This document shows, in pieces, positions 7,252 to 59,044 of a stretch of DNA of 64,000 nucleotides (position 1 is its first letter; each line of letters begins with the position of its first letter). The DNA lies in NCBI GenBank assembly GCA_965203905.1, contig CBDBDQ010000005.1, positions 4,512,001-4,576,000 of the forward strand, given 5' to 3'. This stretch comes from Spirochaetia bacterium (GTDB lineage Bacteria > Spirochaetota > Spirochaetia > SZUA-6 > Bin103). The position numbers and the translations under genes were made by a program. Below the pieces are notes generated by a model. The model searched no databases, had not been told where the DNA came from, and saw nothing but the letters and a program-made list of their open reading frames with translations.

Positions 7252-7280
7252 GCCGGCCGTACCCGAGGCGGAGTTCACGC

Positions 7281-38225: not shown

Positions 38226-38243
38226 AGGTCGCAGTTGGAACTG

Positions 38244-38579
38244 ATGGAACTGATCACCCAGGCTCCTTGGCGCGAGGCGGTGACCTACCGGCACACGTGG
38301 CCCCATGAGTACGTACTGATCAAGAAGGACCGTCAGCAGGCACTGCTCTCTGCCATATGCGGTCGAATTGCGAACGGAGAAGGGGTCGAGGGCCACTTCT
38401 TCAGCAAGAAGTTCACCTATCTGTTCATTGGCGACTACAAGTACTGGACCTACACACCGTGCGCCGAGATCGAACTCGACGCCACCGAGGAGGACTTTGT
38501 CCTCAACCGGGCGATGCTATACCGTGATCACAGAGACTTCGACGTTCGACCAGGCGATACGGGTAGAAGGATCCAATAA
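38244..38579 (+). CDS. Small hypothetical protein (WREAVTY...WPHEY motif)
   Basis: Compact ORF with protein-like composition, followed by an SD-led downstream gene. Confidence 0.65.
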   Translation: MELITQAPWREAVTYRHTWPHEYVLIKKDRQQALLSAICGRIANGEGVEGHFFSKKFTYLFIGDYKYWTYTPCAEIELDATEEDFVLNRAMLYRDHRDFDVRPGDTGRRIQ

Positions 38580-38592
38580 GGAGGACACAACG

Positions 38593-39699
38593 ATGTCCGA
38601 AAAAGCTGAGTATGACACGTTACTGGCCCATCTCGCATGGATGTTTGCATGCCGTCACGAGGACATCGCCGTGGAGGCCCTGGGATACATCCTTCAGTCA
38701 GAGTCCGCTCGCCGCGCGCTTGTGAAGCTGGCGCAGGACGCGGGAGCGGATCTCGACACAATTTCCAAAGTCCAGACACAAGCGATTGGCGACGATGCAT
38801 CGCGCCCTGATCTTGCTTGTACGGACCAATACGGTGATAACTGTCTTCTGATAGAAGCGAAATTCTGGGCCTACCTCACCAAGAATCAACCCAACTCATA
38901 CTTAGATCAACTCCCTGAGGGTAAGGCTCTTCTGTTCATCGCACCAGAAAAGAGAATTGGTACTCTTTGGGATGAACTTCAGAAAAAGACGTCCAGCTAT
39001 ACCTCACTTTCTATCCCAGGATCCGTGGTTAGTAGCCTGAGAACTCGCGAGAATAAGTTCCTGATGTTGACGAGTTGGGATCACCTGCTTGATCATCTGA
39101 GGAACTCCGTAGGCGCACAGCGAGAAGCAGAGATTCAACAACTGAGAGGACTCACAGCTGGAGCCGATACAACAGTTGAAAGGAAATTGGTGCCGGTTGG
39201 TCCCAACGAGCTCGACCTTGCAGGTCTGATCCGTGACGCCGCAGCAGGCGCAGCCACAGATGGCTACGCGATTACGTCCGGATTGAGAGCGACTCGTCGC
39301 CCGACAGGTTATGGTAAGTATCTGCTCGTTGCCGGCGCCGGAGCGTGGCTGGGAGTTGACACCAAGCACTGGGGATGCGATTCCGGGCCGAACACGCCTC
39401 TCTGGCTGCACTTTCAGCGCTGGACATCCGGGAGTCCCGAGTTGTCGGTCTCTTTTGACGAGGTATTACACTCATTCAAGGCACATGGCAAGAGTGATGC
39501 GCTTATTGACGGGAAGAACGTCTACGTTCCACTACCACTGCCCGAAGAGGTAAGAATCGATGAGGTGACCGATTTCGTGAAGCCGTTCAAGGGATCAAAG
39601 CAGATTCAGCCATTCCCGTATCCTGTGCAGTATGAAGAGGTTCTCAGGAAGGTTGTCGACGGCATCAAGGAAGTTGCCCGTGTCATCCGCGCTGGATGA
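38593..39699 (+). CDS. PD-(D/E)XK nuclease family protein
   Basis: ED helix, RPDL, LLIEAKF and NQPNSY; SD GAGGA; AT-richer than the backbone. Confidence 0.8.
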   Translation: MSEKAEYDTLLAHLAWMFACRHEDIAVEALGYILQSESARRALVKLAQDAGADLDTISKVQTQAIGDDASRPDLACTDQYGDNCLLIEAKFWAYLTKNQPNSYLDQLPEGKALLFIAPEKRIGTLWDELQKKTSSYTSLSIPGSVVSSLRTRENKFLMLTSWDHLLDHLRNSVGAQREAEIQQLRGLTAGADTTVERKLVPVGPNELDLAGLIRDAAAGAATDGYAITSGLRATRRPTGYGKYLLVAGAGAWLGVDTKHWGCDSGPNTPLWLHFQRWTSGSPELSVSFDEVLHSFKAHGKSDALIDGKNVYVPLPLPEEVRIDEVTDFVKPFKGSKQIQPFPYPVQYEEVLRKVVDGIKEVARVIRAG

Positions 39700-40584
39700 T
39701 CGGGCCAAGAGTGGAGTTGTGCTACCTGAACGGTAGTAGAGTAACATCTTTTTTTGGCTCTGTGTCGTATCCTTCGTGGCGGCTGGCAATCCAACCGGGG
39801 TATCGTTGGATGATTTCCGCCGCCGTAGGAATCAATCAGTGTATCAGTATGCGGGGAGTTCCCGCTTCAGCCCGTTGATCAGCAACGCGAGTAACCCAGA
39901 AACTGCTCAGCCACAAAGGGGTCGAGCTCTGTCGGAGCTGGCCATGAATCTGGGCGAAGATATGAATGACCGCCACCGCACCGTTGGAGGTAAAGCCGTC
40001 GAGTGGGATGCTGGCGATCGACTGTGCGCCGCCATCCGGCAGCAACAGATGGGCGAGGAGCGAGCTATGGTGACGGCCGCAAGTGCGACAAAGACCCATT
40101 TGGCAATGGCGGCACCGCGAAAAACGGTTGGTGACCGGTTGCGGGGACAGATTGTTGAGCATGAGCTTGGACCTCGGTACGGAGATGGTTCATCGCCCCC
40201 CCGGGGCGTGTCAATTCCCGTAGCGCTGTCGCTGCCGGCGCGACGCGATCGCGTAGCATGCGCGCACCGCCGCTACCGCCCGACATAGGTGCCGCGCTCG
40301 GCCATGAGCGCGAGCATCAAAGCCGGTTCACGCAGCCATCGCGCGCCGGCACGTGCTGAAGCGTTGTACTGGGACGCAGCGGATTCTTACCGAGCTACCG
40401 GATGACCGCCATCTGGCTCCGCACGTTGCGGCCGGCTGAGAGTTGGTTGCGGGGCAGCGCGGGGCGTACCGGCGCTTGACGCTCGTCGGCGTCAGTCGCA
40501 GGATGGGGAGGAACGGTTGCCTGCGCTGACTGGGTCTGAATACTCCTGCGATCCGGCGAACGTGGCACCGCTGAAGACGTCCAA

Positions 40585-43500
40585 ATGGCAGTTAACCTGA
40601 TCACCTGCGGTCCCACTGTCAACGAGAGCGAGCGACACGCCATCCAGCATCTCAAGGCAGGTCTCATTGGTCACGGCGGAAACGGGCAGTGGCTGCTGCT
40701 GACGAATCTCGCCTTTTCGGCGACTCATCGACTCCAATCCGACGAGATCGACATCGTCGCCATCGGGCCGCCCGGGGTTCGGGTAATCGAAGTCAAGCAC
40801 TGGGATGCGGCGTGGATCAACCGGAACACGGACTTGGTCGAACACGAAGCCGACCGGGTAACCAGCAAGGCGCGCAGGATCGGCACGAAGCTCCGCGCGA
40901 AGATCCCCGGCCTCCGGCACGTAGCGGGTGCATTCCTGGTGACTCGGCCCGCCACCAAGGACCAACCGCTCAGGAACGAGGAATTCCGGGGCGTGCGCGT
41001 CTACCCACTGAAAAGGTGGCGGGAAGCCGTTGGCTTCGACTTGCCGCAGGCGCTGTCGGCGCCGCAGATCGAGACGGCAGCGCGTGTCCTGGAGCCACGG
41101 AGCCGGGCTGCGATAGACGGCGAATTGCGGCGGTTGCCCGGTTCCGGTTACACCTCGCTCGAGTTGCAGACACCTGCTCACGAGCAGTTTCACCGTGTGT
41201 ATCGGGCGACACACGCCTCCCGGCGGGATCGCGTGATTCTCCACCTCTACGACTGGTCCGCGAGCGACGACCTAAAGAAGGCGGAGGTGAGGGCGCGCCG
41301 CGAGTTCGAGGCCTTGCACCGCTTGCAGCGACACAGTTGGGCACCGCGCATCATCGATTCGTTCCAGGACGTCCGCGGCTATCCCGGGGAGATAGCGTTT
41401 TTCACCGTGGCTGACCCGTCGGCGCCGTCCATCGCCGAACGTGCCAACGACAAGTCCTGGGATTCGGCGGCCCGGCTGGGTTTCGCCCGTAGCGCCATCC
41501 GTGCTCTGGCCGAACTGCACGAAACCGAGTCCGGCGGCGAGCCGATGCTGCATCGGAATCTGACGCCGAAAACGGTGCTGGTCAGGCATGACAATGCCGC
41601 GGTCCTTACTGGGTTCGAGCATGCCCGGATTCCAACTCAGGTCACGGTCGCCTCGTCGCCCTCCGCCACGGAGTGGGACGAGGCCGCCGCGCCCGAGGTG
41701 CGCGTGCAGGGCCGTGGGGCCGCTGACCGTCGCTCCGACACGTATTCCCTGTGCGCTTCACTCCAGATGTTATTCGCCGGACGCGAAGACGACGACAGCC
41801 GCGCCGCCGAGCGCGCCCTTGCTGGCGGTGCCGCGCACGAACCAGATGCGCGGAGCACATTGGCCCAACTGGACGCCGCGCTGAGCGAGATGCTTGGCGA
41901 AGACCCTCCCGCCCCGCCGCCGCCGCCGGCCCGGTACTGGACCGAGGATCAGGTCGTGCGTTTCGAGGGTCACGACTACCGGATCGTCGCTCGTCTCGGT
42001 TCCGGCGGCGTAGGGACGACGTTCAAGGTCGTCGAGATCGACCGCAGGACGAAAGAGGATCTGGGGACGTACGTCGCCAAGGTCGTGCACGAAGGCGAAA
42101 CCGCCGACCGCGTATTACGGACCCACCGGCTGGTTCGTTCCCATCTCCGCCATTCCGCGTTGTCCACCGTCTACCAGGTCGCTTCGGAGTGGCAGGACAA
42201 CGCGATCACCGTCCTGATGACGTGGATCGAAGGCGAACGGCTCGGCGAGTACACCGGGCTGATTAAGGAACTCGCGGACGACTACGGGAAAGAGTCCCGA
42301 GATGCTCTGGTGGTACGCTGGCTGAGGACGACGTGCGAGGCGCTGGGCGAGTTACACGCCAGCGGCCTGGTGCACGGCGACATCAGTCCCCGGAATCTGA
42401 TCCTGTCGGGATCTGACTTGGTTCTGACCGACTACGACTGCGTGACCAAGATAGGCGAACCGAGTGCGGTGCCGGGCACCGTGATGTATTGCTCGCCTCG
42501 CGCCGATGGCCACGTTGCGGCGCCGTCCGACGACCTCTACGCGTTGGCGGCGAGCATGTTTCACGTTCTGCTCGCCAGGGAACCGTTTCGGCGCGATGGC
42601 GACCTCGCTAAAGAACGCGGTTTGAACTGGACCGGCGTTGAACGCGCCGATTTCCCGGTGTTGTCAGCGTTTCTGGATCGAGCGACCGATCCGGATAGGG
42701 ACCGGCGATTCACACGTGCGACGGCGGCGCTGCAAGCGTTAGCTGCCGCTTCGTCGGCAACACCCCGGCCTGACGACTCGACATCCACCGAGGGAGAAGC
42801 TGAAAGAGAGACCGAGCAGCCACGCGTTCAACGGGAACGAACGGAAAACGAAGTGGCTTGGCTGCGCGACGTGCTGCAGTCCTACCCCGGTTCGCGGTGG
42901 GGCAACCGAGAAACGCGCGGCCTGGACAGCGAGTTTGCCGACCGCACCTACGTTGAAACCAAACTGGAACAGGCACTATACCGGGACCTCCAGAACGGCA
43001 ACGTCAGCTTGGTGGTCCTGTGCGGCAACGCTGGAGACGGAAAGACCGCCCTGCTTCAGAGACTCGCACAGCGCCTCGATCTCGGAGATCACAAGTCGTC
43101 GCGGCGTATCCTGGAGGGACAGACGCCGGCTGGATTGACTGTCCGTATGAATCTGGACGGGTCCGCGTCCTGGGAGGGGCGCACGTCGGACCAACTACTC
43201 GACGAGTTTCTGGAGCCGTTTCAGCACGGCCGGCCGAGCGAGAACATTGCCCACCTGCTAGCTATCAACGATGGCCGCTTGCTGGAATGGATCGAGGACC
43301 ACGAACAGAGTCAAGGTGGACCTACGCCGCTGACGCGATCGCTCACCACCGGTCTTGATGGTGGCCGGCAACGGGAGCACGACGCTCACGTCCGATTCGT
43401 GGACCTGAACCAGCGTTCGCTCGTGGGCGCCGTCACCCCAGACAGGACGAGAATCGAGACCGGCTTTCTCGACCGCTTGGTGGATGCGCTATACGGCGGC

Positions 43501-44643
43501 AAAGAGTCTGCGACGATCTGGGCACCGTGCCAAACGTGCTCGGCGCAGCACCGTTGCGAGGTGCTCCGTGCGACGCGTCTGTTTGCCCCCGACAGCCGCG
43601 CCGACGAGCGCGTTCGGAGCCGTGTCCGACAGCGGCTGTTCGAAGCGCTGCAGGCCGTTCACCTGCGCGGAGAGACGCACATCACCGTGCGCGAGTTGCG
43701 CGCGGCGCTGGTATACATCCTGTTCGGTGTTCACTTCTGCAGCGACTACCACTCCGGCGAACACACCGACGCGTTGGCACACTGGGATCGCGCATTCGAT
43801 CCTCAGTCGCCGGGTCGCCAGGGAGAAGTGCTGCGCGAACTGGCTCGCTTCGACCCCGCCCTCGACGCCCATCCGCACATCGACCGCGCTCTACTGCATC
43901 CGTCGACCATTGCCAGGGAGTTCAACGGCCCCGGGTTCCTCGACGCTTCTCGCGGAGCAGCCGAACGCCGCGCGCGGTTGGTGTCGGAGCGGCGCCGCGC
44001 GTACTTCGAGTGGCCCGAGTCGCGGATTGAGAGTCTGGCGGGAGATCCTGATGCACTGGGGCTCGCTCAAGGGCGTCATTTAAGCCAGTTCCGCGACTTG
44101 ACCATCGTCGACAACGCGTCCCGTGACCGGTTGGCTGCGCGTCTCTGTGAAGGAATCTCCCGACTCGAAGCCCTGCCTCCGCAGGCACTGAACCGTTCGG
44201 GTGCCGTGCCATTGCGCATCACGCCGCGAACGCCCACCGAGACCGCCTTCTGGGTCGAGAAGCAGGGCAGCGATTTCCGACTCGAGGTCGAGCTGCCCGG
44301 TACGCCGGACCTGGATCGACTTCACCGCCATGCGAAGCTGATTTACCGCTATCGGAACGGCTCCAATGAAGAACTGCTCCTCGGTGCCGAGCTGTTCCAC
44401 CTGCTGCTGGAGCTGGCCGACGGCTATCAACTGGGCGACGTCGCCACGGACGGCACGTTCGCTCATCTGTCGATCTTCGTCCAGCGCTTGGTGCGGGAGG
44501 ACGAACGGCGTGTGTTGGCATGGAGTCCCATGGCCGACGAAGCCGTCTTCGAAGTCGCTGCGGAGCATGGCGCCTCCGGGCGGCGTCAAACCCTGGCAAT
44601 TGGTCGGCGCGATTCGGGAGATTGGAATGGCGAAACCGGTTAA
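40585..44643 (+). CDS. NERD nuclease - pseudokinase - Ser/Thr kinase - P-loop ATPase multidomain protein (MAD6/DndF-like)
   Basis: NERD: EIDIVAIGPPGVRVIEVKHW. Kinase 1: HRNLTP/TGFE. Kinase 2: LGSGGVG, VAK, HGDISPRN, TDYD. Walker A GNAGDGKT, AINDGRL and CQTC..C. Confidence 0.88.
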   Translation: MAVNLITCGPTVNESERHAIQHLKAGLIGHGGNGQWLLLTNLAFSATHRLQSDEIDIVAIGPPGVRVIEVKHWDAAWINRNTDLVEHEADRVTSKARRIGTKLRAKIPGLRHVAGAFLVTRPATKDQPLRNEEFRGVRVYPLKRWREAVGFDLPQALSAPQIETAARVLEPRSRAAIDGELRRLPGSGYTSLELQTPAHEQFHRVYRATHASRRDRVILHLYDWSASDDLKKAEVRARREFEALHRLQRHSWAPRIIDSFQDVRGYPGEIAFFTVADPSAPSIAERANDKSWDSAARLGFARSAIRALAELHETESGGEPMLHRNLTPKTVLVRHDNAAVLTGFEHARIPTQVTVASSPSATEWDEAAAPEVRVQGRGAADRRSDTYSLCASLQMLFAGREDDDSRAAERALAGGAAHEPDARSTLAQLDAALSEMLGEDPPAPPPPPARYWTEDQVVRFEGHDYRIVARLGSGGVGTTFKVVEIDRRTKEDLGTYVAKVVHEGETADRVLRTHRLVRSHLRHSALSTVYQVASEWQDNAITVLMTWIEGERLGEYTGLIKELADDYGKESRDALVVRWLRTTCEALGELHASGLVHGDISPRNLILSGSDLVLTDYDCVTKIGEPSAVPGTVMYCSPRADGHVAAPSDDLYALAASMFHVLLAREPFRRDGDLAKERGLNWTGVERADFPVLSAFLDRATDPDRDRRFTRATAALQALAAASSATPRPDDSTSTEGEAERETEQPRVQRERTENEVAWLRDVLQSYPGSRWGNRETRGLDSEFADRTYVETKLEQALYRDLQNGNVSLVVLCGNAGDGKTALLQRLAQRLDLGDHKSSRRILEGQTPAGLTVRMNLDGSASWEGRTSDQLLDEFLEPFQHGRPSENIAHLLAINDGRLLEWIEDHEQSQGGPTPLTRSLTTGLDGGRQREHDAHVRFVDLNQRSLVGAVTPDRTRIETGFLDRLVDALYGGKESATIWAPCQTCSAQHRCEVLRATRLFAPDSRADERVRSRVRQRLFEALQAVHLRGETHITVRELRAALVYILFGVHFCSDYHSGEHTDALAHWDRAFDPQSPGRQGEVLRELARFDPALDAHPHIDRALLHPSTIAREFNGPGFLDASRGAAERRARLVSERRRAYFEWPESRIESLAGDPDALGLAQGRHLSQFRDLTIVDNASRDRLAARLCEGISRLEALPPQALNRSGAVPLRITPRTPTETAFWVEKQGSDFRLEVELPGTPDLDRLHRHAKLIYRYRNGSNEELLLGAELFHLLLELADGYQLGDVATDGTFAHLSIFVQRLVREDERRVLAWSPMADEAVFEVAAEHGASGRRQTLAIGRRDSGDWNGETG

Positions 44644-46447
44644 TCCGCGCGACATCGTCCGTGGCGTGTTGCCACGAAACATGGCAAAGGAGCTCTGGTC
44701 GGCGCGCTACGAAAAGGCACTCCCAATCACTTCCAACAGTTTCGAGCTCTCCGCAGTGTTGCCCGCGGTGTTGTACATGTTCAGATACGGACGACGTCGG
44801 GGAACGGGCGAATTCCTGAAGACGTTCGTTCCGGAAGGTGGTACTCCACCCGAGCGCCGGAGGAAGGCGACCGTCGAACGCGTCGCGAAGGCGCTGGCAT
44901 CGAGCGCGGACTTGCATGGTTTCGATGGCCAGGTCGAGCAGGCGGTGCTGGGTGACCTGTTGCTCTGTTTCTGTCTGGAGAATGCGAATCGGAGGCTGGG
45001 TCGGGACCAGCAGATTCAACGGGTTGCCGCGGCGCACTACCTGGCGAGCTGGGTCGACCTTCCAGAAAGAGTAACGGCACTCCGCTCCGTCCCCGAGATG
45101 ATCGTGGCGATGCTGGCAAATCAGTACGGCAATCACGTCGTGCCTACGCATCTCGATAGTCAAAAGACCTGGTTTGCGGTGGCACGCGGCGCTCAGGACA
45201 ACGTGTTGCTCCGTGCCTTCAGTCAAGGAGTAGCGCACCGAGGCGGTCCCCTGGATGATACGGCTTCCGATCGCTTCGATGAGAACCAGACGGTCGGTCT
45301 CGATCAACTCCTGATGATTCGCCTCGCACAGCAGTTGCCGAACGCTCCTGATCGACCACGAGGCAACGAAACCGAGAAGATCTCGAATCAACGTCCGATT
45401 GCCGAACAGACCGCCGAACACTTCTCCGAAGACATCCGCCTGTTTGTGCGAGCTTACGCAGCCACCACGCCGCGCTACATCTTCATTGACATGCTGGAGT
45501 CGTGCATGTCCACCGGCATGACGGCGATCCTGACAAGTGTCATCGAAATCCTGTTCGCATGGTCCGACACCGGTGCGGTACCGCCGAAGCACGAGCAGCG
45601 TCCCGCGAGCATCTTCGTGGATTGCTCGAACGGCGTCGATACCCGACTGCGCGGGCTGGCCGAACACTCCATGGACGATTTCATGCGACGTGTCGAGCGA
45701 GTCCCCGTTGTACTGATGATGCTCAGGCTGCTGGACTACACCGCGAAGCACAATCGGAAGATAAAGAAGCAGCAGATATCAACACTGCCGTACGCTACCA
45801 GATGGCTCAATCTGCTCGGAGACATCATGCATCGACGCCACGAAGAAGCGCCATTCATTCACCGCACGATGGACGACTACTGTGAAGCGCTTGCGGACGC
45901 GTTGGACGCTGAATACCCGGATGCGACCGAAGTGCTGCGTAACGATGCGAGCGAACCCAACTCGATTCGCCGCTTGGCCGCCGGCCTTACACCGCTCTTG
46001 GGATCGAGTCACCGTGGTAATTTGCTCGGGATGGTCGACTCGACGCTGCAAGTTGGCCGCCCCAATGGCTTGGCCCACAAGCGCCTCACCACTCGCGGTG
46101 CGAGTTCCGTGACGTCGGGACGCCGCCGCCGCGAAGTCCGATCGCTGCACCTTACCGACGCGGGGTTGGACTACCTCGTTCATCTGCACGTCTTGAGCAA
46201 GGAGCAGAGCCCCAAACAGCGTCGAATCTCGTTGCGATCGTTTATCGACACGATCCGCAAGCGCTACGGGTTCCACGTAGACGCAGCGCCGGAAGGAATG
46301 ACGATTTCCAACCAGTTGCTGGAGGTCAACCGCACGATTCTCGAGCGCCGGTTGCGTGATCTTGGCTTGCTCGTCGGTGTGAACGACGCCGAAGCCATGA
46401 AGCGGCTCAAGCCTCGTTTCCCGGTGGAGGATGGATGCCTACCGTGA
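44627..46447 (+). CDS. Hypothetical protein, MAD7/DndG-like
   Basis: 606 aa from ATG 44627; overlaps both neighbours. C-terminal winged-helix-like segment FIDTIRKRYG...LERRLRDLGLLVGVNDA. Confidence 0.75.
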   Translation: MAKPVNPRDIVRGVLPRNMAKELWSARYEKALPITSNSFELSAVLPAVLYMFRYGRRRGTGEFLKTFVPEGGTPPERRRKATVERVAKALASSADLHGFDGQVEQAVLGDLLLCFCLENANRRLGRDQQIQRVAAAHYLASWVDLPERVTALRSVPEMIVAMLANQYGNHVVPTHLDSQKTWFAVARGAQDNVLLRAFSQGVAHRGGPLDDTASDRFDENQTVGLDQLLMIRLAQQLPNAPDRPRGNETEKISNQRPIAEQTAEHFSEDIRLFVRAYAATTPRYIFIDMLESCMSTGMTAILTSVIEILFAWSDTGAVPPKHEQRPASIFVDCSNGVDTRLRGLAEHSMDDFMRRVERVPVVLMMLRLLDYTAKHNRKIKKQQISTLPYATRWLNLLGDIMHRRHEEAPFIHRTMDDYCEALADALDAEYPDATEVLRNDASEPNSIRRLAAGLTPLLGSSHRGNLLGMVDSTLQVGRPNGLAHKRLTTRGASSVTSGRRRREVRSLHLTDAGLDYLVHLHVLSKEQSPKQRRISLRSFIDTIRKRYGFHVDAAPEGMTISNQLLEVNRTILERRLRDLGLLVGVNDAEAMKRLKPRFPVEDGCLP

Positions 46448-49400
46448 CGTGGACCGCACTCCATGGCTCGCTTCTCGCTCGGGCGTTCGACAAGGTGCTC
46501 GGCCACCCGCAGCCAGGAGCCGTGGCCTTCGCACGCTGCCTGACGAAGGAAGTCGTACAGCAGCTCGCGATGGATTCTGCCTTCGATCTCGACTCGTGGA
46601 AGGTTTTTCGCGTTGCCGCCGTTCGGTCCGCTGAACGCACCATTACCGCTGACCGAGCCGTGGAGCTGCGCGAGAGCAAGGGCGACGCGCTGTTGCTCCT
46701 GGTCGACACTGTACGCGCGGGAGCCGGCATGGATGGCATTTACAGTGCCGCACGGGAGGTGGATGAGGCAACTTTGTTCCGCGAGGCGCGACGTCTGGCG
46801 CTGGCGACGATCACGAAGCGTCATTCCACCGCAACGCGCCGGTACGCGGAGGATGCGCTGAAGGCGGCGATCCGCACGTCCGGCGGCAGAGACGCGCTCC
46901 CGCCCTGGACGTCATTCGACTTCCTGTGCCGGATCGCCGCCGGCGAGCAGTCACCGGGAACGTACACACATGTTCTCGGACTGTGGCCCATTCGAGACAG
47001 CGCGGAGTCCAACCACGCTGACGACTTGCGCGACGCGCGGAAGTTTGTTGACGTTCTGTTAGGGCCGGCTGCCGCAAGTCTCGCGCCTGCCGCCCGCATC
47101 GACGCGCTACGCCTCGACGGCGACTCCGAACAGCAACGGGCTAGTCTGGAGCACTTCCTGCATGAGGTCGACGCCAAGCCTCTGCGTACGGCCCTCGAAG
47201 AGCTGGCGAAGCCAAACCAGCGGCACCTGTGGGTGGGTTCGCTGCGCACCGAAGGCCCGGCGCTTTCGATCAAGAGCATCGAGCTCACGCCGTGGCGTAA
47301 CGCGCACGGAAAGATTCATCGTTGGTCGGGGTTGGTAGACGACGGCGATGTCAATGACCCGCCGGCACTGATTCTGAGCGCAGACGCGGATCAACCGGGC
47401 GCTACGCTCGAGGTGCGGTGGAAGGTCGATCCCGGTGATCTCGAACGTAATGCGGTCGATTACCGTGTACAAGTCGTTACGGGAAACCTGAACGAGGAAC
47501 TTGCCTATAAGGACGTACCCCACTCCGCTCGAAAGACCGGTGAAAAGTGGCGCTTCAGCGGCGACGACTTCGCGCTTGATGAAGATGCGCAAGTTGCCGC
47601 CAAGGTGGTCGTTTCGGTCGTCGGAGATGAAAAGGTTGAGCGGCGGGAGAGTGAGGAGTTTTTCATCCGTTTTGGTGACGGACCCGATCCGCAGACCGGC
47701 GGGATCGGCGTCAGGGTTCGCGCCTTCAGCGAGGGCGTTGCCGCGCTGAGGAGCCGCGATGTGGTGTCGGAGATCGCGGAGGCCCCGCAGGTGGCGGCCG
47801 GCGGCAGGAGTTACGTTACGTTGCGCACACCGGTTGAGGGACGGCGGCGGCGAAGCTACCGGGTGTTGCGCTCCGCTCTGGTCGCTGAGGTCGAACGTGA
47901 TTGGAGCGCGCGCGAGGGTTGCGTCGGACGCTGGGTACTCAAGGTACGCGGCTCTGGTGAGTGGGCTCGCGGTCCTGACTTCTCGCCGATGGACAGCAGT
48001 GGCGCGGAATGGGATCGCGTCGAGAAGGCGAGCCGCAGAGTGGCCGCGCGATTTGCTACCACTTGCGGCGGCGTGGCACAAATCTACGACGAGCGCAGCA
48101 AGGCACATGACATCGTCAAGTTCTACCTGCGGGCATGGCTGGCTCTGCTGAGGAGCGGAGATCCGGCTTGCGCAATCTGCAATACCGTCGAGGTGCAGTC
48201 GCTGTCAGGTCGCACGATTGGATTGATCGTCCTTCCGGCCCACCCGTTGCGGATGGCGTGGCACGCTGCCTATGACAACCTCGTACTCCATGCGGCCTTC
48301 GAGCAGAGTGTCAGGCACAGCGACCTGCTGCGCGAATTGGCCGGACTCGACGGCGCGATGTTTCCGGCGTTCCTGCCCAACCCGCACGGTGGGGCGTTCG
48401 TGTTCGCCGACACCCTGGGTTTTCACGCGGTCGGTATGGTGCCGGACGACGACCGGGAGCCGAAGGCCGCGGTGGCGATGCTGGCACGTGCCGTGGGAGG
48501 CAGCGACGCGGCTGACAGCGCACCGAGCGTGGGCATGCAGAGCGCCGCGGTGCTCGGGAGCGAAGTGGTAAAGTACCTCGATTGCCATGACACGGCCCGA
48601 CTGTTGCGGATACACGCGCTGCGTGCCGGCGACGGTATGACCGTGGCGCGATCGCTCGGCACCGTTCAGGAGCACTACCAGGACGGCGAAGAAATTGAGG
48701 ACGACACCGATCAACTGAACACAACGGCGCCGGTGTTTTCGCTCGATCTGTATCCATCCGTGGCACAGCAGGGCATTACCGGGCGCTTCATTGCCGAAGC
48801 GCGCGAGAAACGGCGCAGCGGGGCCGGCGTGCTTGCCGAACAAGACCGCTGGATGCTGCAATCCGTGAGTCTTCCCGGCGGGGTCAACCAACCTCGCCTG
48901 CGCTGGGCGCGCAAAGACCAACAGGATCCGAACACGGCAGCGCACGTTGCCATCGCCTTCGATACGTTCGAGTCCCGCGTATCGCCCGATCCGGCAGTGT
49001 CACGCACGGCCCGACCACTTCACGCGTTCGGCCTGCTGTCGTTCTACGAACGTCAGTACGCGAGTCTGCCTGCGCCACAGTGGGTCAGTGCTGCCCCACC
49101 GGGTCACGGGGGCGAGAAGCACCCGTCGAGCCGGACGCACACCGATACGCTCCTGCGCCTGCAGCACGCGATACAACAGGCCGTGTCCAGCCACCTGGGC
49201 ATCACGGGCTTCCCGGTGCTGCGCACCGAGATCTCTGTGGAAATGGCAGACAGCCTCGACAAGTTGCATCGATTGTGCGACTGGGTAGTCACCTTGGACC
49301 GGAACGCCGGTGTCGAGTACTTCGACTCGCCGCGCGACAACCCGACGGTATACGACGCCTATATGATCGACTGCGTGCCGGAACGCGATGACCTTGGCTG

Positions 49401-51432
49401 TCTTCAGTTGATCACGTCGACCGCCAATTTGGACGAGGTCCGCAACCTGCTTGACCGTGCACTCGATCAGATGGGGTTGAGCCGCAGCCGCCGGAACGCG
49501 AAGTTTCTGATAGCACACCTGAAGGCGCTCAGCGGTCGGCTTGCCATTCGCCTCACGGGTCACCGCGCGGTGACATCTGAGCTGATCGCGATGGCCCTAT
49601 CCCACGCCAACTGCCGGCTTGCGCCTGCGAGCGATGATTGCTGGGTATCTCTCGAACATGGATTCTTCATCCCGATCGACGACGTATGCGACCTGCTGCC
49701 ACCCCTCTCGGTGGCCGGCGACCAGGACGATGAAGAATCGCACCGTGGTAGGCCTGATCTGATCTACGTTTCGCTCTCTGCTCCGCGCCGCAAGGTGCTC
49801 ACTTTCAGCTTTATCGAGGTTAAGTATCGCAGACACCTGCGCACGGCGCGGTCCGTAGAGGTTCTCGACAGCATCCGCAAACAGACCCACTCTGTGTGCG
49901 AGCGGTGGTTCCAATGGTACGACCGCGACGTGTGTTCCGCGTTTCGCGCGCTGCGGCGTGCGAAGTTGGCGCGCGTGTTGAGATTCTACGCCGACAAGGC
50001 CCACCGCCACGCCTTGCCGAATCAGCGGTATGAGGCGCTGGTATCTGAAATCGACCGCATGATCGAGCGTGGTGCGGAGTACAAATTCGCTCCCGAACAC
50101 GCCGAAACCCGTGGCTGGGTGTTCTGCCCGGAGTATGCCGGCGACAGCCCGCTGCAGATCTCCCCCGACGAGTGGGACACGCGCATATTCCTGTTTGGCC
50201 CAGGCCGACTGCCGGACTCCGACTTCGGCGACGGCGTGCCCTTCCGGCCGCCGCCGGCGCCCCAGCAGTCGACTTCCCGGCGGACGCCGGAACATGAAGG
50301 AGAGTCCAGTGCGACGGCTGGGTCGGAGAACACCGAGGCAACCCGTGAAGAGCGCCGCGCGTCGGCCTCGACTGCTGCGGAGTCTTCTGAGCCCTCCGTT
50401 TCCTTCGGCACGGATGCACGTACCAACCGAGACGTGCGTTGGCCGCTGAAGGTGCAGGGCAACCCTCACCTGCTGATCGCGGGATTACCAGGGATGGGCA
50501 AGACCACCTGCCTGCTCAACCTCTGCCGTCAAATGGCTGCATCTCAGGTGCGTCCGATTGTCTTCTCCTATCATCAGGACATCGACGAGAAGCTCGCGGA
50601 GTCGGTTTCGGACGTCCGGTTCGTCGACTTCGACGGCCTTGGATTCAATCCGCTGCAGGTGATACCAGGAGCGTCGCGGTTGGCTCACCTGGACGTTGCT
50701 GCGGATATCCGGGACATCTTCATGGCGATCTATCCCGAACTAGGAGATATTCAGGGAGAGCGCCTGCGGACCGCCGTCAAGGACAGCTTCGCGGAAGCGG
50801 GGTGGGGCCCGAATGGCGCCCCCGAAGGTACGTCAGAGCCTGTGTTCGCCCGTTTCGTGGAGATTCTGCGCTCAGATGCGAAGCCGGACAAAGGGTTGCG
50901 AACCCTGCGCGCCCGTCTCAACGAACTTGACGACTACGGATTCTTTCAGGTCCACCAATCTCACCATAGTCTGTGGGACCATGAGCAGCCTACCGTCATC
51001 CGTGTCCACACCACACAGAACGAGAACCTGCAGCGTGCGTTTGCGTCTCTGGTATTCTACGGCCTGTATAAAGACATGTTCCGGCGAGGCACACAGGATC
51101 GGATCACCCACGCGCTGATCTTCGACGAAGCACACCGCGCCGCGCGTTTGAGGCTGATCCCGACGATGGCCAAAGAGTGCCGCAAGTACGGTATCTCCCT
51201 CGTGCTGGCATCCCAGGAAGCACGCGACTTTCACGTATCCGTATTCTCGGCAATCGCGAATTATCTCGTACTGAGGCTGACCGCGACCGACGCTCGATTT
51301 CTGGTCAGGAACGTATCAAGTTCGCAGCAGGAACGGGCGCTGATCGACAGGATCAAGCAGATGGAGCGGTTCAAGGGACTGTTCTTCGTCGAGGGGAAAA
51401 CGCGTCCACATTCGGTGAACCTGTCGTCGTAG
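46435..51432 (+). CDS. Large protein with PD-(D/E)XK nuclease and C-terminal HerA/FtsK ATPase (MAD8/DndH-like)
   Basis: RPDLIYV...FIEVKYR (about 49750-49830); NPHLLIAGLPGMGKT, IFDEAH and KECRKYGISLVLASQ. Confidence 0.88.
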   Translation: MPTVTWTALHGSLLARAFDKVLGHPQPGAVAFARCLTKEVVQQLAMDSAFDLDSWKVFRVAAVRSAERTITADRAVELRESKGDALLLLVDTVRAGAGMDGIYSAAREVDEATLFREARRLALATITKRHSTATRRYAEDALKAAIRTSGGRDALPPWTSFDFLCRIAAGEQSPGTYTHVLGLWPIRDSAESNHADDLRDARKFVDVLLGPAAASLAPAARIDALRLDGDSEQQRASLEHFLHEVDAKPLRTALEELAKPNQRHLWVGSLRTEGPALSIKSIELTPWRNAHGKIHRWSGLVDDGDVNDPPALILSADADQPGATLEVRWKVDPGDLERNAVDYRVQVVTGNLNEELAYKDVPHSARKTGEKWRFSGDDFALDEDAQVAAKVVVSVVGDEKVERRESEEFFIRFGDGPDPQTGGIGVRVRAFSEGVAALRSRDVVSEIAEAPQVAAGGRSYVTLRTPVEGRRRRSYRVLRSALVAEVERDWSAREGCVGRWVLKVRGSGEWARGPDFSPMDSSGAEWDRVEKASRRVAARFATTCGGVAQIYDERSKAHDIVKFYLRAWLALLRSGDPACAICNTVEVQSLSGRTIGLIVLPAHPLRMAWHAAYDNLVLHAAFEQSVRHSDLLRELAGLDGAMFPAFLPNPHGGAFVFADTLGFHAVGMVPDDDREPKAAVAMLARAVGGSDAADSAPSVGMQSAAVLGSEVVKYLDCHDTARLLRIHALRAGDGMTVARSLGTVQEHYQDGEEIEDDTDQLNTTAPVFSLDLYPSVAQQGITGRFIAEAREKRRSGAGVLAEQDRWMLQSVSLPGGVNQPRLRWARKDQQDPNTAAHVAIAFDTFESRVSPDPAVSRTARPLHAFGLLSFYERQYASLPAPQWVSAAPPGHGGEKHPSSRTHTDTLLRLQHAIQQAVSSHLGITGFPVLRTEISVEMADSLDKLHRLCDWVVTLDRNAGVEYFDSPRDNPTVYDAYMIDCVPERDDLGCLQLITSTANLDEVRNLLDRALDQMGLSRSRRNAKFLIAHLKALSGRLAIRLTGHRAVTSELIAMALSHANCRLAPASDDCWVSLEHGFFIPIDDVCDLLPPLSVAGDQDDEESHRGRPDLIYVSLSAPRRKVLTFSFIEVKYRRHLRTARSVEVLDSIRKQTHSVCERWFQWYDRDVCSAFRALRRAKLARVLRFYADKAHRHALPNQRYEALVSEIDRMIERGAEYKFAPEHAETRGWVFCPEYAGDSPLQISPDEWDTRIFLFGPGRLPDSDFGDGVPFRPPPAPQQSTSRRTPEHEGESSATAGSENTEATREERRASASTAAESSEPSVSFGTDARTNRDVRWPLKVQGNPHLLIAGLPGMGKTTCLLNLCRQMAASQVRPIVFSYHQDIDEKLAESVSDVRFVDFDGLGFNPLQVIPGASRLAHLDVAADIRDIFMAIYPELGDIQGERLRTAVKDSFAEAGWGPNGAPEGTSEPVFARFVEILRSDAKPDKGLRTLRARLNELDDYGFFQVHQSHHSLWDHEQPTVIRVHTTQNENLQRAFASLVFYGLYKDMFRRGTQDRITHALIFDEAHRAARLRLIPTMAKECRKYGISLVLASQEARDFHVSVFSAIANYLVLRLTATDARFLVRNVSSSQQERALIDRIKQMERFKGLFFVEGKTRPHSVNLSS

Positions 51433-51966: not shown

Positions 51967-52154
51967 AGCTGTTGATCGATGAGCGTCTGAGTCCAGATTC
52001 GGCACGGATCGCATGGTACGCTGGAATAGTTTGCTCACATGTCAGGTGGCTGGGTCTGCAGTCGGCGCAAGACTGGCAGCTTGTGCAACGCGCGGTCAGC
52101 GACGATTGGGTGTTCGTAACGAACAACACCGCCTTCGGCCCGACCGCTTGGTGA
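51963..52154 (+). pseudogene. DUF5615 PIN-like toxin, truncated
   Basis: KLLIDERLSP, HVRWLGL...D and FVTNN; stops at 63 aa. Confidence 0.75.
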
Positions 52155-52282
52155 TGCGCACGAGACCGCCGCGTGGCATCCACCGCCGGCTGTGACGGTT
52201 CCATCTGTCTCCTGCCGTGTCTCGATCGGAACGTGATTACGGAACGATGACAGCGGCGTCACGTCCTGCGACAATGATGCCC

Positions 52283-53877
52283 GTGCGCAAGTTCAACACT
52301 GAAGGCCCAATCCGCGCGGACCGGCACTATCACATTCCGCCGCTGACGCGGCTCGATCTCGACGACGTCCTCGGCCTCATCCGCCACGAGAAGTACTTCG
52401 TGCTGTACGCGCCACGGCAGACCGGCAAGACCTCGGCGCTGCTGGCCCTGCGCGACCTGCTCAACTCAGGGCAGGCGGGCGAATTCCGCTGCGTGTGCGC
52501 CAACGTCGAGGCCGCACAGGCGATGCGGGAGAACATCGGCGAGGGAATCCGCACCGTCCTCGCCGAACTTGCGTTTCGGGCCAGCGTGACGCTACACGAC
52601 GAGACGCTGGAGAACCTCTGGCCCGCGCTGCTGGAGCGCGTCGGGCCGGGGCAGGCGCTGCGCCAGGCGCTGGCGCGTTGGAGCATGGCGGACCCGCGCC
52701 CGTTGGTGCTGCTGATCGACGAGATCGACGCGTTGATCGGCGACACGCTGCTGTCGGTGCTGCTGCAGCTTCGCACCGGCTACGACCAGCGTCCGGACGC
52801 CTTCCCGCACAGCATTATTCTGTGCGGGGTGCGCGACGTGTGCGACTATCGCATCCACTCCAGCGCCGAGAACCGAATGGTGCTCGGTGGCAGTGCATTC
52901 AACATCAAGTCCAAGTCGCTTCGGCTCGGCGACTTCTCCGAACAGGAGATACGCTCGCTGACCACGCAGCACACCGAACAGACCGGGCAGGCGTTCACGC
53001 CGGAAGCGCTGGGCCTGATCTGGACGCGCAGCGCCGGCCAGCCGTGGCTGGTGAACGCGCTGTGCCGGGAGTCATGCTACGACAGCGTCGCCGGCCGCGA
53101 CCGATCGCGGCCCCGATTTCGGCCGATGCCATCCTGGAGGCGCAGGAGCGGCTGATTCTGCGTCGGGACACGCACGTCGACGACCTCGCCAACAAGCTGC
53201 GCGAAGAGCGTGTGCGGCGCGTGATAGGGCCGATCCTCGCCGGCGCCGGCCGGCAGGCGTGGTCGGAGGAAGACATCGCCTACGTCCGCGACCTGGGGCT
53301 GGTCACGCAGGACGTGGGCGGGCGGTCACGCATCGCCAACCCGATCTACGAGGAGCTGGTCCCGCGCCACCTGAACTACGCGGTGCAGGCGGGGCTGCCG
53401 CAGGAGATGGCGTGGTACGTGGACCGCGCCGGCAACCTAGACGTGGTGGGCCTGATCGCGGCGTTCCAGACCTTCTTCCGGGAGCACTCCGAGCACTGGG
53501 TGCAGCGCTTCGAGCGCTACCAGGAGGCCGGCCCGCAGTTGCTGCTGCAGGCGCATCTGCAGCGCGTCGTCAACGGCGGAGGGGGGATCGAGCGGGAGTA
53601 TGCGCTCGGGCGCGGGCGCACGGACCTGCTGATCGTGTGGCCGCAGGGCGGGCTCCAGCGGCGCTGGGTGGTGGAGTGCAAGGTGCGGCACGGGGACCTG
53701 GAGCGGACCATCGCGGATGGGCTGGAGCAGACGCGTGCCTACCTGGATCGATGCGGCGCGGAGGCGGGCCACCTGATCGTGTTCGACCGATCGCAGGAGC
53801 GGAGCTGGGAGGAGAAGATCTTCCGCCGTGACCCGCCGCCCGGCGGAGCCGTTCCGGTCACCGTCTGGGGCATGTGA
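52283..53877 (+). pseudogene. AAA ATPase with C-terminal PD-(D/E)XK domain, split by one frameshift near 53112
   Basis: RKFNTEGP, APRQTGKT, LIDEID and GQPWLVN in one frame; EREYALGRGRTDL...VVECK in another. The junction is a C4 run. Confidence 0.85.
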
Positions 53878-53938
53878 CCCCGGCGCCCGACACGCGGCTC
53901 CGCGGTCCGCAGCGGCCGGGATGCGACCGTGCCGGAAC

Positions 53939-55147
53939 TCAGTCGCGGAAGGGGTCGAACTCGTCGGGGCCGGCCATGGCGACGCCGAGGGGCGTGAGGG
54001 TGTGGAGGATGCGGATGCTGCCGGCGTGGAATCCGAGCACCTCTTCGATGCGCTTGTAGCAGTGCGGTGACTCGTCGGTGCCGGCGCCGCGCAGCTCGAC
54101 GCCGGCGCGCTGCAGCCAATCCTGCATCATTTCGCGGCTGACTTCGCCTTCGCTGATCTGCTCTACGCGGTCGCGCCTGCGACGGCGCTTGCCGGCCGCG
54201 CGGCGGCGTGACATCACCCGCCCGGCGCCGTGCACCGTGGAGCGCAGGGTGAGGCGGCTCTCCTCGCTGTCGATGCCCTCCACGATCACCGAGATGTCGC
54301 CCATGGAGCCGCCGATGAAGCCGCGCTGGCCGGGGAAGGCCGGCGTGGCGCCCTTGCGCACCACCCACAGGTCGCGGCCCAGGTGGTGCTCGCGCCAGGC
54401 GAAGTTGTGGTGGTTGTGCACCTCGTCCAGGACCGTGGCGCCGAGCAGACGGGCGACGCGGGCGCAGACCCAGTCGCGGCCGGCGTAGGCGTAGCGGCCG
54501 GCGAGCTGCATGCACGCCAGGTAGCGCCGTCCCAGGTCGCTGTCGGTGGCCAGCAGCACCGGATCGACGTGGATGCCGTCGCGCCCGCCGCCGGCGCGGA
54601 TGAAGTAGCTGGCCAGCTTGTGGCCCAGTCCGCGGGAGCCGAAGTGCACCCCTACCCAGACCCGGTCCGCCTCGTCGGCGAACAGGTCGACGTAGTGGTT
54701 GCCGGAGCCGATGGTGCCGAGTTGGGCGCGCGCCATGTCGCGGTGCTGCGCGGCTTCCGACAGGTCCCATGCGGGATCGTCGGCGAACAGCTCGTGCTCC
54801 ACCGGCTCCGGGTTCTTGCGGCCGATGCCGAACGAGAGGGTGCGCCACAGGTCGTCCATGATCGGACCGATGTGACGGCGCACCTCGGCGGCCTCGGCGT
54901 CGAGCAATATCGCCTTGTTGCCACAGGAAATATCGAATCCGACGCCGGATGGGCTGAGGTGCTCGGCATAGGCGATCACACCGCCCACCGGGACCGCGTA
55001 GCCGAGGTGGTGGTCGGCCATCAGGGCGGCGTAGTCGGCGCGCTCCCGGCAGCGCTGCATCTGCTCCACGGCGCCGGCGACCGGGACGCCCCACACCGGC
55101 AGCGAGTCGATCACCTGGTGAGACGGCTTCGACGGCCGCTCCGCCAT
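53939..55147 (-). CDS. rtcB: RtcB family RNA ligase
   Basis: ADHHLGY, GFDISCG, GTIGSGNHY, HFGSRG, HNHHN, HGAGR and DESPHCYK. Confidence 0.95.
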   Translation of the reverse strand: MAERPSKPSHQVIDSLPVWGVPVAGAVEQMQRCRERADYAALMADHHLGYAVPVGGVIAYAEHLSPSGVGFDISCGNKAILLDAEAAEVRRHIGPIMDDLWRTLSFGIGRKNPEPVEHELFADDPAWDLSEAAQHRDMARAQLGTIGSGNHYVDLFADEADRVWVGVHFGSRGLGHKLASYFIRAGGGRDGIHVDPVLLATDSDLGRRYLACMQLAGRYAYAGRDWVCARVARLLGATVLDEVHNHHNFAWREHHLGRDLWVVRKGATPAFPGQRGFIGGSMGDISVIVEGIDSEESRLTLRSTVHGAGRVMSRRRAAGKRRRRRDRVEQISEGEVSREMMQDWLQRAGVELRGAGTDESPHCYKRIEEVLGFHAGSIRILHTLTPLGVAMAGPDEFDPFRD

Positions 55148-55148
55148 C

Positions 55149-57873: not shown

Positions 57874-58012
57874 AGCTCGGCAGTGTAAGCACGGTGTGCA
57901 CGACGCACAACGTCTGCCGCACGCCGTGCGTGGCATCGACGGGGAACTCTCGTGTGGCGCTTGGAGACGGTAGGGCCGGCTGCCCCGGCTGCCCCTCTTC
58001 GCACTCCGTTCC

Positions 58013-58249
58013 CTACGAATCCGCCGTCACGGGTCCGTTCCTTACGGCCAACCCGAATGCTCGAAAGCTCGGGCTTCGGCCCTCAATCGTGTGCGGGTCG
58101 AGTTGCTCGGCGATTTCCGCCGACAGCCGCGCGGTATACACGATCTGGTCGCGCCTGAGCAGGTTCTTCAGGTGCTCCTTGGGCCGGATTATTTCGTCAG
58201 GTCGCGATGTGTCTACGTGACCCTGTGACCTGCCGCCAAGATGTCTCCT
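58013..58249 (-). pseudogene. 3' remnant of a DUF4276-like (TOPRIM-type ATPase partner) gene
   Basis: Manual translation: ...PDEIIRPKEHLKNLLRRDQIVYTARLSAEIAEQLDPHTIEGRSPSFRAFGLAV*. The 5' part is missing. Confidence 0.5.
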
Positions 58250-58776
58250 GGGGGACGCGATTGTCGGACTATCTGAGCGTCGGCGTCATCGCGCAGGTGT
58301 TTCCGTTGTCGGCGGTACGGGCAGCGTTGGATGAGACCGGTCGGCGCAGCCGGCGGCAGCGGTCGTTGCCGGCCGAGGTGATGATCTATTACGTCATCAC
58401 GATGGCACTGTTTCGGTCGGTAGCGGCACGGGAGGTGTTGCGCTGTCTGGTGGATGGGTTGCGTTGGCTGGCGCCGATCATGGCGGTGCGAGTGTCGGGC
58501 AAGTCGTCGATCTCGCGGGCTCGGAGCCGGCTGGGCACGGCGCCATTCGCGGCGTTGTGCCGCGCGCGCGTGGGGGTGGTAGCGGAACGCGAGACGCGCG
58601 GGGCGTGGTACCGTGGCCGGTGCCTGATAGCGTTCGACGGATCGACGCTGGACGTACCGGACGAAGCCGAGAACCGGGATGCCTTCGGGCTACCGGGCAC
58701 TGGGCGGGGACAAGCGGCGTTTCCGCAGGTACGGCTGACCGCGATGGTGGAGGTGGGCACGCGGGCGGCCTCTTGA
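58250..58776 (+). mobile_element. IS4 family transposase fragment (N-terminal part only)
   Basis: RLSDYLSVGVIAQVFP, RQRSLPA, SSISRARSRLG, AFDGSTLDVPD and AFPQVR; truncated at both ends. Confidence 0.85.
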
Positions 58777-59009: not shown

Positions 59010-59044
59010 TCTCCAGGGGTCTCGGTCCCTGGGGAGATTTTTTT
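59010..59044 (+). terminator. Rho-independent terminator-like hairpin
   Basis: TCTCCAGGG...CCCTGGGGAGA stem followed by T7. Confidence 0.6.

Follow-up and report, generated by a model that had tools for sequence, protein, structure and literature searches.

How can a restriction-type nuclease-translocase that comes without a self-mark spare its host? A trio of genes in a Spirochaetia bacterium makes this question testable. The trio lies in a 64,000-nucleotide (nt) stretch of the genome (assembly GCA_965203905.1, contig CBDBDQ010000005.1, positions 4,512,001 to 4,576,000; hereafter the window, in whose coordinates positions are given) and consists of gene A (40585..44643, 1352 aa), gene B (44627..46447, 606 aa) and gene C (46435..51432, 1665 aa), all on the plus strand. 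The initial annotation, made from the sequence alone, had described three overlapping open reading frames (ORFs) free of frameshifts over 10.8 kb, and its coordinates, lengths and overlaps (17 nt for A/B and 13 nt for B/C) are correct. Family matches and an alignment to MAD6 identify A as a MAD6-like, kinase-fused DndF-like protein; MAD7 profile matches make B a MAD7-family partner devoid of a recognised enzymatic motif; and C, from profiles and models, is a DndH/MAD8-type multidomain nuclease-translocase. By analogy with these relatives, the trio is probably a self-contained, horizontally mobile anti-invader (restriction or abortive infection) cassette that belongs to the DndFGH / MAD6-7-8 superfamily. 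The most fitting description is that of a sister clade, without a methylase, to the MAD6-8/DndFGH trio; it is neither a split known system nor categorically new.

The trio is a widespread unit. A search with B yielded 1258 homologues at E<=0.001 among 8000 scored candidates, and the 120 homologues listed share 62-73% identity and are mostly 571-620 aa long. A profile built from 29 B homologues retrieved 79 loci from metagenome-assembled genomes, the record titles of which name at least 15 phyla. By tblastn, the trio is colinear in these loci, with A and B present in all 79 and C in 77/79 (the other two loci end at a contig edge); identity across phyla is 50-72%, and all three ORFs are full length in 55 of the 79 loci. 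What emerges is a sister clade of MAD6-8/DndFGH that moves alone between at least 15 phyla, with no marking gene. A stretch of 10.8 kb that is open at 63% G+C, together with the same colinear trio in 79/79 related loci, is far beyond chance. Codon-position G+C in all three frames is consistent with coding sequence; overall G+C is 0.60-0.66 in the trio stretch and about 69% in the window. B has an alternative upstream ATG at 44366, and its homologues start aligning at residues 4-8 of the 606-aa form.

Domains and active sites of the three proteins

To check the active sites, the proteins of the window were aligned with homologues from related loci (65 for A, 74 for B and 66 for C); residues are numbered as in the window. 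A begins with a NERD (PD-(D/E)xK-type) nuclease domain (residues 13-81, 40621..40827, plus strand; Pfam PF08378, E 1.7e-7), in which D56, E69 and K71 are kept in 66/66 homologues. Two kinase-like domains follow, both of which had been annotated as kinases; this holds for the second, which has a live catalytic set, and fails for the first. The first (residues ~200-440, 41182..41904, plus strand), contained within the NCBIfam MAD6 match, has H-R-N with N325 in 58/66 sequences and never D, and T-G-F at the DFG place, with G343 in 58/66 and no D at the DFG position. Because HRN and TGF replace the catalytic motifs, this domain is predicted to be an inactive pseudokinase. The second (residues 462-745, 41968..42819, plus strand) is a Ser/Thr protein kinase with the complete catalytic set of G-loop, K499, HGD, N604 and DYD, and is the one Pfam kinase domain found in A (Pkinase, residues 465-672, E 1.1e-21). 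It also matches the PADLOC models of PD-T4-6, a single-gene kinase system, and MkoA, as well as PknA/PknB structures. Its G-loop is kept, and so are K499 (64/66), H597 (66/66), D599 (64/66), N604 (66/66) and D616 (64/66).

The next domain of A (residues 788-1107, 42946..43905, plus strand) is a P-loop domain of the DndF/SspF type, identified by the PADLOC SspF match of residues 790-1049 (8.8e-19) and accompanied by weak Pfam P-loop matches near residue 810. The Walker A motif GNAGDGKT, N856-L-D858 and LLAIN895-D896 are each present in 66/66 sequences, with Asn at the Walker B place. The annotated NERD and P-loop motifs of A are thus intact throughout the 66 homologues. The C-terminal region (residues 1108-1352, 43906..44640, plus strand) belongs to no known family but is colinear with the C-terminus of MAD6, the alignment with which reaches residue 1311; by position, it may correspond to the alpha+beta domain of DndF.

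All matches of B point to a single family. Among PADLOC models it matches mad7 only (1.6e-12), and the NCBIfam MAD7 match extends across nearly the whole profile; the precomputed Pfam label PF26611 (MAD7) is attached to the entry for B and to all 120 homologues listed, and the Atlas clusters nearest to B are named MAD7 (0.97-0.98). A profile search of B against the PDB matched no solved structure.

C was modelled with AlphaFold2 from 67-row alignments, with a pLDDT (predicted local distance difference test) of 89.5 for residues 1-600 and 80.6 for residues 560-1300. By the secondary structure of the model, residues 1-265 (46435..47229, plus strand) form an alpha/beta domain followed by a helical region, for which structure searches returned only weak Brr2-helicase matches; judged by position in the model, this part would occupy the place of the inactive SWI2/SNF2-type domain and helix-turn-helix (HTH) of DndH. 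A beta-sandwich domain of the immunoglobulin/fibronectin type III (Ig/FN3)-like kind follows at residues 277-418 (47263..47688, plus strand).

Residues 670-1000 of C (48442..49434, plus strand) adopt a class I S-adenosylmethionine (SAM)-methyltransferase fold that contains a beta-rich insert; the [SDN]PP[FYW] motif is lacking, as it is in 66/67 C proteins. In Foldseek searches against the PDB, the model of residues 560-1300 never reached E<=0.001 and that of residues 1-600 gave low template modelling (TM) scores. Comparison of the models with 48,161 chains by VIA-align was clearer than Foldseek: the aligned span of about 320 residues greatly exceeds the number of aligned residues, and the model has the beta-rich insert at about residues 810-894. 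The Gly-rich loop RAGDG after the first strand of the fold is kept, and no stretch among the N-terminal 1300 residues is better conserved than one in this domain, DWV..DRN.G.EYFD (residues 945-1000), with a mean column conservation of 0.92 at residues 951-1000. This stretch is common to MAD8, which is 24% identical to C overall, and to a Rhizobium copy of the trio. The methylase-fold domain does not look eroded.

The two remaining domains of C carry the predicted effector and motor. A PD-(D/E)xK restriction-endonuclease domain (RPD...IEVK; residues 1104-1260, 49744..50214, plus strand) is supported by motif conservation, with D1108 and E1128 each in 62/67 aligned sequences and K1130 in 61/67, and by the model, in which a beta-hairpin at residues 1109-1131 marks the place of the motif. 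The HerA/FtsK-type P-loop ATPase (residues 1320-1665, 50392..51429, plus strand) has Walker A K1356, Walker B D1564-E1565, R1583 and the sensor Q1594, each in 67/67. The annotated combination of nuclease and ATPase in the third protein is accordingly borne out, with catalytic residues kept in 61-67 of 67 sequences. Residues 1289-1657 match the PADLOC models of DndH (4e-23), mad8 (2.4e-15) and HerA; the C-terminus further matches Pfam FtsK_SpoIIIE and TrwB, among NCBIfam models only HerA/CedB-type P-loop ones, and the solved C-terminal domain of DptH (PDB 7es4_A, 3.9e-7).

Relationships to MADS, DndFGH, SspFGH and PglW

The closest comparison is with MADS, of which two relatives of our bacterium carry bona fide examples that exceed the NCBIfam cut-offs (MAD6, NF047741, 460 bits; MAD7, NF047733, 410 bits; MAD8, NF047742, 175 bits, an N-terminal model of 200 positions). 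One locus belongs to a genome of the same genus (L104, G010:C1:3578000-3597900) and the other to a genome of the same family (L105, G012:C1:3110000-3129900), and both have the order MAD2, a 573-aa ORF, MAD5, MAD6, MAD7, MAD8. The bona fide proteins are MAD2 (737 aa, 1000 bits), MAD5 (468 aa, 459 bits), MAD6 (1387 aa, 766 bits), MAD7 (555 aa, 611 bits, or 611-615 over the two loci) and MAD8 (1817 aa, 213 bits). As a side observation, the MAD5 of L105 is split into two ORFs, one of 262 aa matching profile positions 1-233 and one of 245 aa matching 241-461, possibly through a frameshift or as a shufflable specificity subunit.

The window trio shares with MADS the same three genes in the same order, with similar sizes and domain order, including NERD, kinases and P-loop in the first protein; common to MAD8 and C are the stretch DW..DRN.G.E[YF]FD, the nuclease motif D...EVK and the motifs of HerA/FtsK. 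In BLASTP alignments, A is 26% identical to bona fide MAD6, colinearly over residues 297-1311 of A and additionally at the NERD end; B is 22% identical to MAD7 over residues 179-600 of B; and C is 24% identical to MAD8 over residues 598-1194 of C and at the P-loop motifs. The real size of MAD6 and MAD8, which are as large as A and C, is hidden because the NCBIfam models span only the N-terminal 612 and 200 positions, respectively. The trio differs from MADS in this low identity (22-26%), in missing all three NCBIfam equivalog cut-offs, and in having no MAD2, no MAD5 and no OLD-type MAD3/MAD4 pair as neighbours among the window ORFs scanned (25.4-63.7 kb). Furthermore, the same-genus genome G010 carries both the trio and a complete MADS, about 190 kb apart, and because the two coexist, they are distinct systems.

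The MADS preprint (Maestri et al., bioRxiv 10.1101/2023.03.30.534895) reports that phage resistance needs every one of mad2-4 and mad6-8, and its detection model treats MAD6, MAD7 and MAD8 as mandatory and the others as accessory. A 2026 paper describes MAD7/MAD8 as a second ATPase-associated module, the mechanism of which is left open there. Since the PADLOC models mad6 (5.8e-18 for A), mad7 and mad8 match A, B and C, a loose MacSyFinder-type rule might call the trio an incomplete MADS.

The DndFGH comparison rests on a tripartite F-G-H operon with the same order and strand and with overlapping or abutting ORFs. Rakesh, Aravind and Krishnan (NAR 2024; PMC10853773) describe a DndF variant in which NERD, an inactive and an active S/T/Y kinase precede the P-loop core, as in A. 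The DndF core itself is described there as a P-loop kinase in which Walker A is canonical and Asn replaces the Walker B Asp, and which also has a large lid and an alpha+beta domain; the Walker A motif, N856/D858 and Asn895 of A, in 66/66 sequences, fit this description at the level of motifs. The same source describes DndG as a triple winged-helix protein and DndH as a protein of about 1700 aa with an N-terminus comprising the inactive SWI2/SNF2-type domain with HTH and two target recognition domains (TRDs), and with a beta-sandwich, an inactive methylase, a restriction endonuclease and a HerA/FtsK ATPase with Gln sensor and Arg finger. All of these from the beta-sandwich onwards are present in C, the domain order of which, to judge from the models, would reproduce most of the eight-domain DndH core, whereas TRDs were not resolved in whole-model structure searches of C. 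Three differences stand against these likenesses: the classical DptF/DptG/DptH models do not recognise A/B/C, MAD7 being the sole G-type family that matches B; the methylase-like domain of C contains a strongly conserved stretch and is not eroded-looking; and the window trio is not coupled to dndABCDE phosphorothioation.

SspFGH is the restriction arm of SspABCD-SspFGH, likewise a three-gene arm with the P-loop protein first. SspF models match the P-loop region of A at the E-value given above, whereas neither B nor C has a PADLOC SspG or SspH match. In PglW of type 2 BREX, NERD, a pseudokinase and an active S/T/Y kinase similarly precede a sensing C-terminal half (bioRxiv 10.1101/2025.10.09.681413), and the bona fide MAD6 matches the PglW model with 243 bits. 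In contrast, A has no PglW (NF033442) match at E<=0.01 and a C-terminal half that is DndF-like, not BrxA/BrxB-like; no PglZ or PglX was seen at 25.4-63.7 kb.

The comparison with DndFGH and MAD6-8 made in the initial annotation was therefore right: MAD6 (193 bits) and MAD7 (143 bits), PADLOC SspF, mad6, DndH and mad8, and the DptH structure all match. The designation as a candidate new defence system was overstated, given that the first-gene architecture and the stand-alone DndFGH idea are already in print in PMC10853773 and bioRxiv 10.1101/2025.10.09.681413, the latter repeating the NERD/pseudokinase/kinase/DndF grammar and comparing it with PglW, and that MADS, which has been tested, has as its mandatory core a homologous trio built in the same way (bioRxiv 10.1101/2023.03.30.534895). 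Because all curated MAD6/7/8 and DptF/G/H cut-offs are missed, the trio is a separate clade; by sequence, it is a sister of MAD6-8, and MAD6-8 in turn is a DndFGH-type trio. As MAD6 and MAD8 are full-length counterparts of the kinase-fused DndF and of DndH, MADS can be viewed as a type-I-like methylase/specificity pair and an OLD-type pair bolted onto a DndFGH-type trio. This link is not stated in the texts consulted: 'MADS' is absent from PMC10853773 and bioRxiv 10.1101/2025.10.09.681413, 'Dnd' from PMC13662399, and 'DndH' from bioRxiv 10.1101/2023.03.30.534895.

A mechanism can be proposed from two points: DndFGH is reported to nick and translocate DNA as a complex, and phage resistance by MADS depends on each of mad6-8. 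A, B and C would assemble on DNA, with B and the N-terminal domains of C (alpha/beta plus helical, beta-sandwich and methylase-like fold) finding or holding the target, the HerA/FtsK motor of C translocating DNA, and its PD..EVK nuclease cutting or nicking it. A would be the sensing and regulatory hub, in which the DndF-type P-loop binds a nucleotide, the live Ser/Thr kinase, paired with the dead one, gates the complex or phosphorylates targets, and the NERD nuclease serves as a second effector or a backup. Given that the trio travels without a marking enzyme, self would most likely be discriminated from non-self by infection cues or features of incoming DNA and not by a dedicated epigenetic mark.

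This proposal accords with a model already in print. According to PMC10853773, DndFGH often occurs apart from DndABCDE (316 of 5228 taxa have all eight genes), its three genes are hardly ever separated, and it is proposed to be a stand-alone counter-invader system sensing nucleotides and invader macromolecules. Should the spirochaete trio protect alone, it would provide the first bench support for that model.

Several observations weigh against a self-contained anti-invader cassette. With NCBIfam models, A reaches 193.4 bits against MAD6 (residues 4-441; 128 bits in the genome search), below the cut-off of 460; B, with 143.2 bits, misses the MAD7 cut-off of 410; and C has no MAD8 match at E<=0.01. 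For Dpt (cut-offs: DptF, TIGR03238, 50 bits; DptG, TIGR03236, 20 bits; the DptH equivalog is TIGR03237), A scores 19.8 bits with DptF, below 50, and B and C have no DptG or DptH match at E<=0.01. Since every curated cut-off is missed, the function proposed for the cassette is transferred from relatives that are 22-26% identical to it. Both tested relatives use a DNA mark, m6A (N6-methyladenine) in MADS and phosphorothioate in Dnd, so that action without one is a prediction. The identity of 50-72% across phyla is unusually high for defence genes. Finally, of the 24 loci that lack an intact trio, 9 reach a contig end and 15 are internally broken, decay and assembly error being indistinguishable.

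The search for a marking enzyme

The initial annotation had reported no modification genes in the window. Indeed, the window ORFs at 25.4-63.7 kb include no methyltransferase, specificity or dnd gene, and across the genome, which is 98.7% complete, DndC and DndE gave 0 hits each and MAD2 (NF047738) 0 hits at E<=1e-20; Ssp-type modification genes had no separate search, the DndC model being related to SspD. The best MAD5 match has 51 bits vs a cut-off of 400, and the MAD6 model finds only A. The best PADLOC mad2 match is a 511-aa HsdM-like ORF about 790 kb away (G000:C5:3763301-3764518), the 195 bits of which are at the level of ordinary type I methylases (mad2 166-174 bits), and a weak HsdS-like match is also present. 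The mad3 model matches more than 200 ABC-type ATPases in this genome. One mad3+mad4-like pair (L019, L020; G000:C5:5268097-5269706), in which a 452-aa mad3-like ATPase covering the full profile lies beside a weak mad4-like Toprim ORF, looks OLD-type; it was not treated as linked, being about 0.7 Mb away with mad4 at 30 bits. MAD6-8 matches are full-length but low-scoring, and mad1-5 are found neither elsewhere in the genome nor adjacent to the trio in most homologues, which speaks against a split form of the known system.

Related genomes give a similar picture. Of 42 genomes that carry the trio and have large contigs, 3 have a MAD2 and 12 a DndC above the cut-off; where present, these genes lie at least 155 kb from the trio. 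Canonical DptG (TIGR03236) was found in none of the five DndC-bearing genomes searched (G046, G054, G059, G060, G082; L026, L041, L046, L050, L099), in which the trio might conceivably take the place of DptFGH. Clustering of 2414 flank ORFs from the 79 loci revealed no conserved partner gene, as no cluster occurs in more than 8/79 loci, close-kin synteny aside, and the largest is HsdM. Parts of type I restriction-modification (R-M) systems (HsdM, HsdR, HsdS) are present in the flanks of 10/79 loci and are, by PADLOC, ordinary and mutually dissimilar. These counts come from BLAST with type I proteins over all flanks, accompanied by a Pfam run on 112 of 452 candidate flank ORFs (19/79 loci) that found one N6_Mtase and one HsdS/HsdR set. 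The survey of homologue neighbourhoods for methylases that the initial annotation called for therefore yields no fixed methylase. A seemingly MADS-like module upstream of the trio in L062, L067 and L070 was rejected as ordinary type I R-M (MTase_I 670-686 bits vs mad2 166-174). The remaining flanks hold housekeeping genes or further defence genes, namely GmrSD, AAA_15/21, SIR2, AbiEi and a DrmD-like helicase.

These data bear on the explanation under which the trio is the effector arm of a split system that reads the mark of an unlinked enzyme (a type I/II methylase, MAD2/MAD5 or phosphorothioation) and restricts unmarked DNA. Both tested relatives work in this way; the type I parts in 10/79 flanks lie directly upstream and on the same strand in L062, L067 and L070; DndC accompanies the trio in 12/42 genomes, in none of the five searched of which DptG is found, and MAD2 in 3/42; and our bacterium itself has an HsdM-like methylase and a weak HsdS-like match. 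Yet DndC, DndE and MAD2 are absent from its genome, 30/42 trio-bearing genomes lack DndC and 39/42 lack MAD2, the copies that exist are as distant as stated, and the adjacent methylases are ordinary type I enzymes with 23-58% mutual identity, on either side and either strand of the trio. We consider a split system unlikely. Because DndC, DndE and MAD2 are missing from the genome and are rare and distant in the 42 others, a fixed unlinked partner is unlikely, and because the cassette moves alone between phyla, it cannot rely on one particular mark; opportunistic use of the host's own mark is possible.

Under the preferred reading, that of a self-contained cassette, the conserved methylase-fold domain of C invites a further suggestion: it could be a ligand sensor (for SAM or a nucleotide) or a non-canonical catalytic centre that reads or writes a DNA state in the same protein that cuts, providing kinase-gated, marker-free discrimination. 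This is rather unlikely, but if the methylase fold were active in C, self and invader could be told apart without a separate modification gene.

Mobility and genomic context

Of 40 related genomes, 5 have strong trio matches (69-72%), 1 of 10 in the same genus and 4 of 13 in the sister genus, and there is no strong match in the 17 genomes of other families. Among 72,556 plasmid records, two carry the trio, both Rhizobium conjugative plasmids with 38% identity to B. On the R. phaseoli plasmid (NZ_CP013540.1, L107, 17202-36965), the trio is located downstream of SIR2-family and DUF3616 genes and upstream of IS66, and the annotation of the surrounding 20 kb includes no methylase; this carrier is cultured and non-pathogenic. 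The RefSeq names are 'NERD domain-containing protein kinase family protein', 'hypothetical protein' and 'ATP-binding protein', none of them MADS or Dpt.

Such a setting might suggest that the trio is not host immunity but serves a mobile element, through competition between plasmids or ICEs, exclusion or addiction, or some other handling of DNA. Its location beside IS66 on conjugative plasmids, its very high conservation across phyla, the use of HerA/FtsK motors also in conjugation and segregation (PMC10853773) and its position in several loci amid housekeeping genes, where the flanks showed no defence genes, are all consistent with this. However, the trio is in only 2 of the 72,556 plasmid records and mostly sits on chromosomes, it has no conserved integrase, relaxase or replication gene as a neighbour, the homologous MADS trio is needed for phage defence, and two nucleases with a kinase fit an effector. 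A role outside host immunity is accordingly improbable.

In our bacterium, the trio arrived with an insertion. The same-genus genome G007 has its ABC permease and RtcB genes convergent and 1.7 kb apart; in the window, the permease gene ends at 38225 and the RtcB gene is at 53939-55216 on the minus strand. By blastn, positions 5832-7580 of the G007 locus (L106) correspond to window 38225-36478 (90.5%), and positions 5038-5702 to window 52130-51461 (72.4%). Because the flanks are contiguous in G007 apart from about 130 bp, window 38226 to ~51435 is an insertion of 13.2 kb that comprises the trio, on the plus strand, and two or three unrelated upstream ORFs. Its G+C is 0.56-0.66 vs 0.68-0.72 in the flanks, and its right end is only a few bases from the C stop codon. 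At the ends as read, no direct repeat, attachment (att)-like site, integrase or tRNA was seen, no tRNA scan having been made; a 5-6 nt 'ttgga' similarity at both junctions was judged to be chance.

The upstream ORFs of the insertion are a 114-aa ORF of no family and low G+C (38235-38579, plus strand), a 368-aa ORF (38593..39699, plus strand; 56% G+C) and a doubtful 170-aa ORF (39776-40288). The second is a possible PD-(D/E)XK nuclease, with a D...IEAK motif and a PDDEXK_4 match below the cut-off (E 0.0063, 16.9 bits). No neighbour of the window trio has a relative among the 79 loci, and the ORFs at 38368-39699, 39776-40288 and 52217-53155 were rejected as system members, being present in 0/79 loci and matching no family in PADLOC or NCBIfam.

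Low-G+C ORFs of doubtful coding status in the insertion, and the internal breaks in 15/79 related loci, could be taken to mean that the trio in this genome is a decaying or silent remnant. Against this, its 10.8 kb are open with every catalytic residue present, 55/79 loci are fully intact, and the gene overlaps suit translational coupling, so that we regard a remnant as very improbable. In 3 of the 55 intact loci, an intergenic insertion of 1.9-2.1 kb is present, between A and B in L028 and L034 and between B and C in L075; these may be insertion sequence (IS) elements.

Beyond the right end of the insertion, window 52130-53938, with an AAA_22/AAA_16 ATPase ORF (52217-53155), replaces about 0.9 kb of G007 and is a second variable spot. 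The initial annotation had also described the neighbouring accessory genes as broken; this stands for one of them, an IS4 N-terminal fragment (58159-58776), the only neighbour that the check covered. Together with an IS5-like DDE transposase ORF (61981-62931, minus strand), this fragment flanks window 58000-62000, a region of low G+C (0.52-0.54) that contains short ORFs only.

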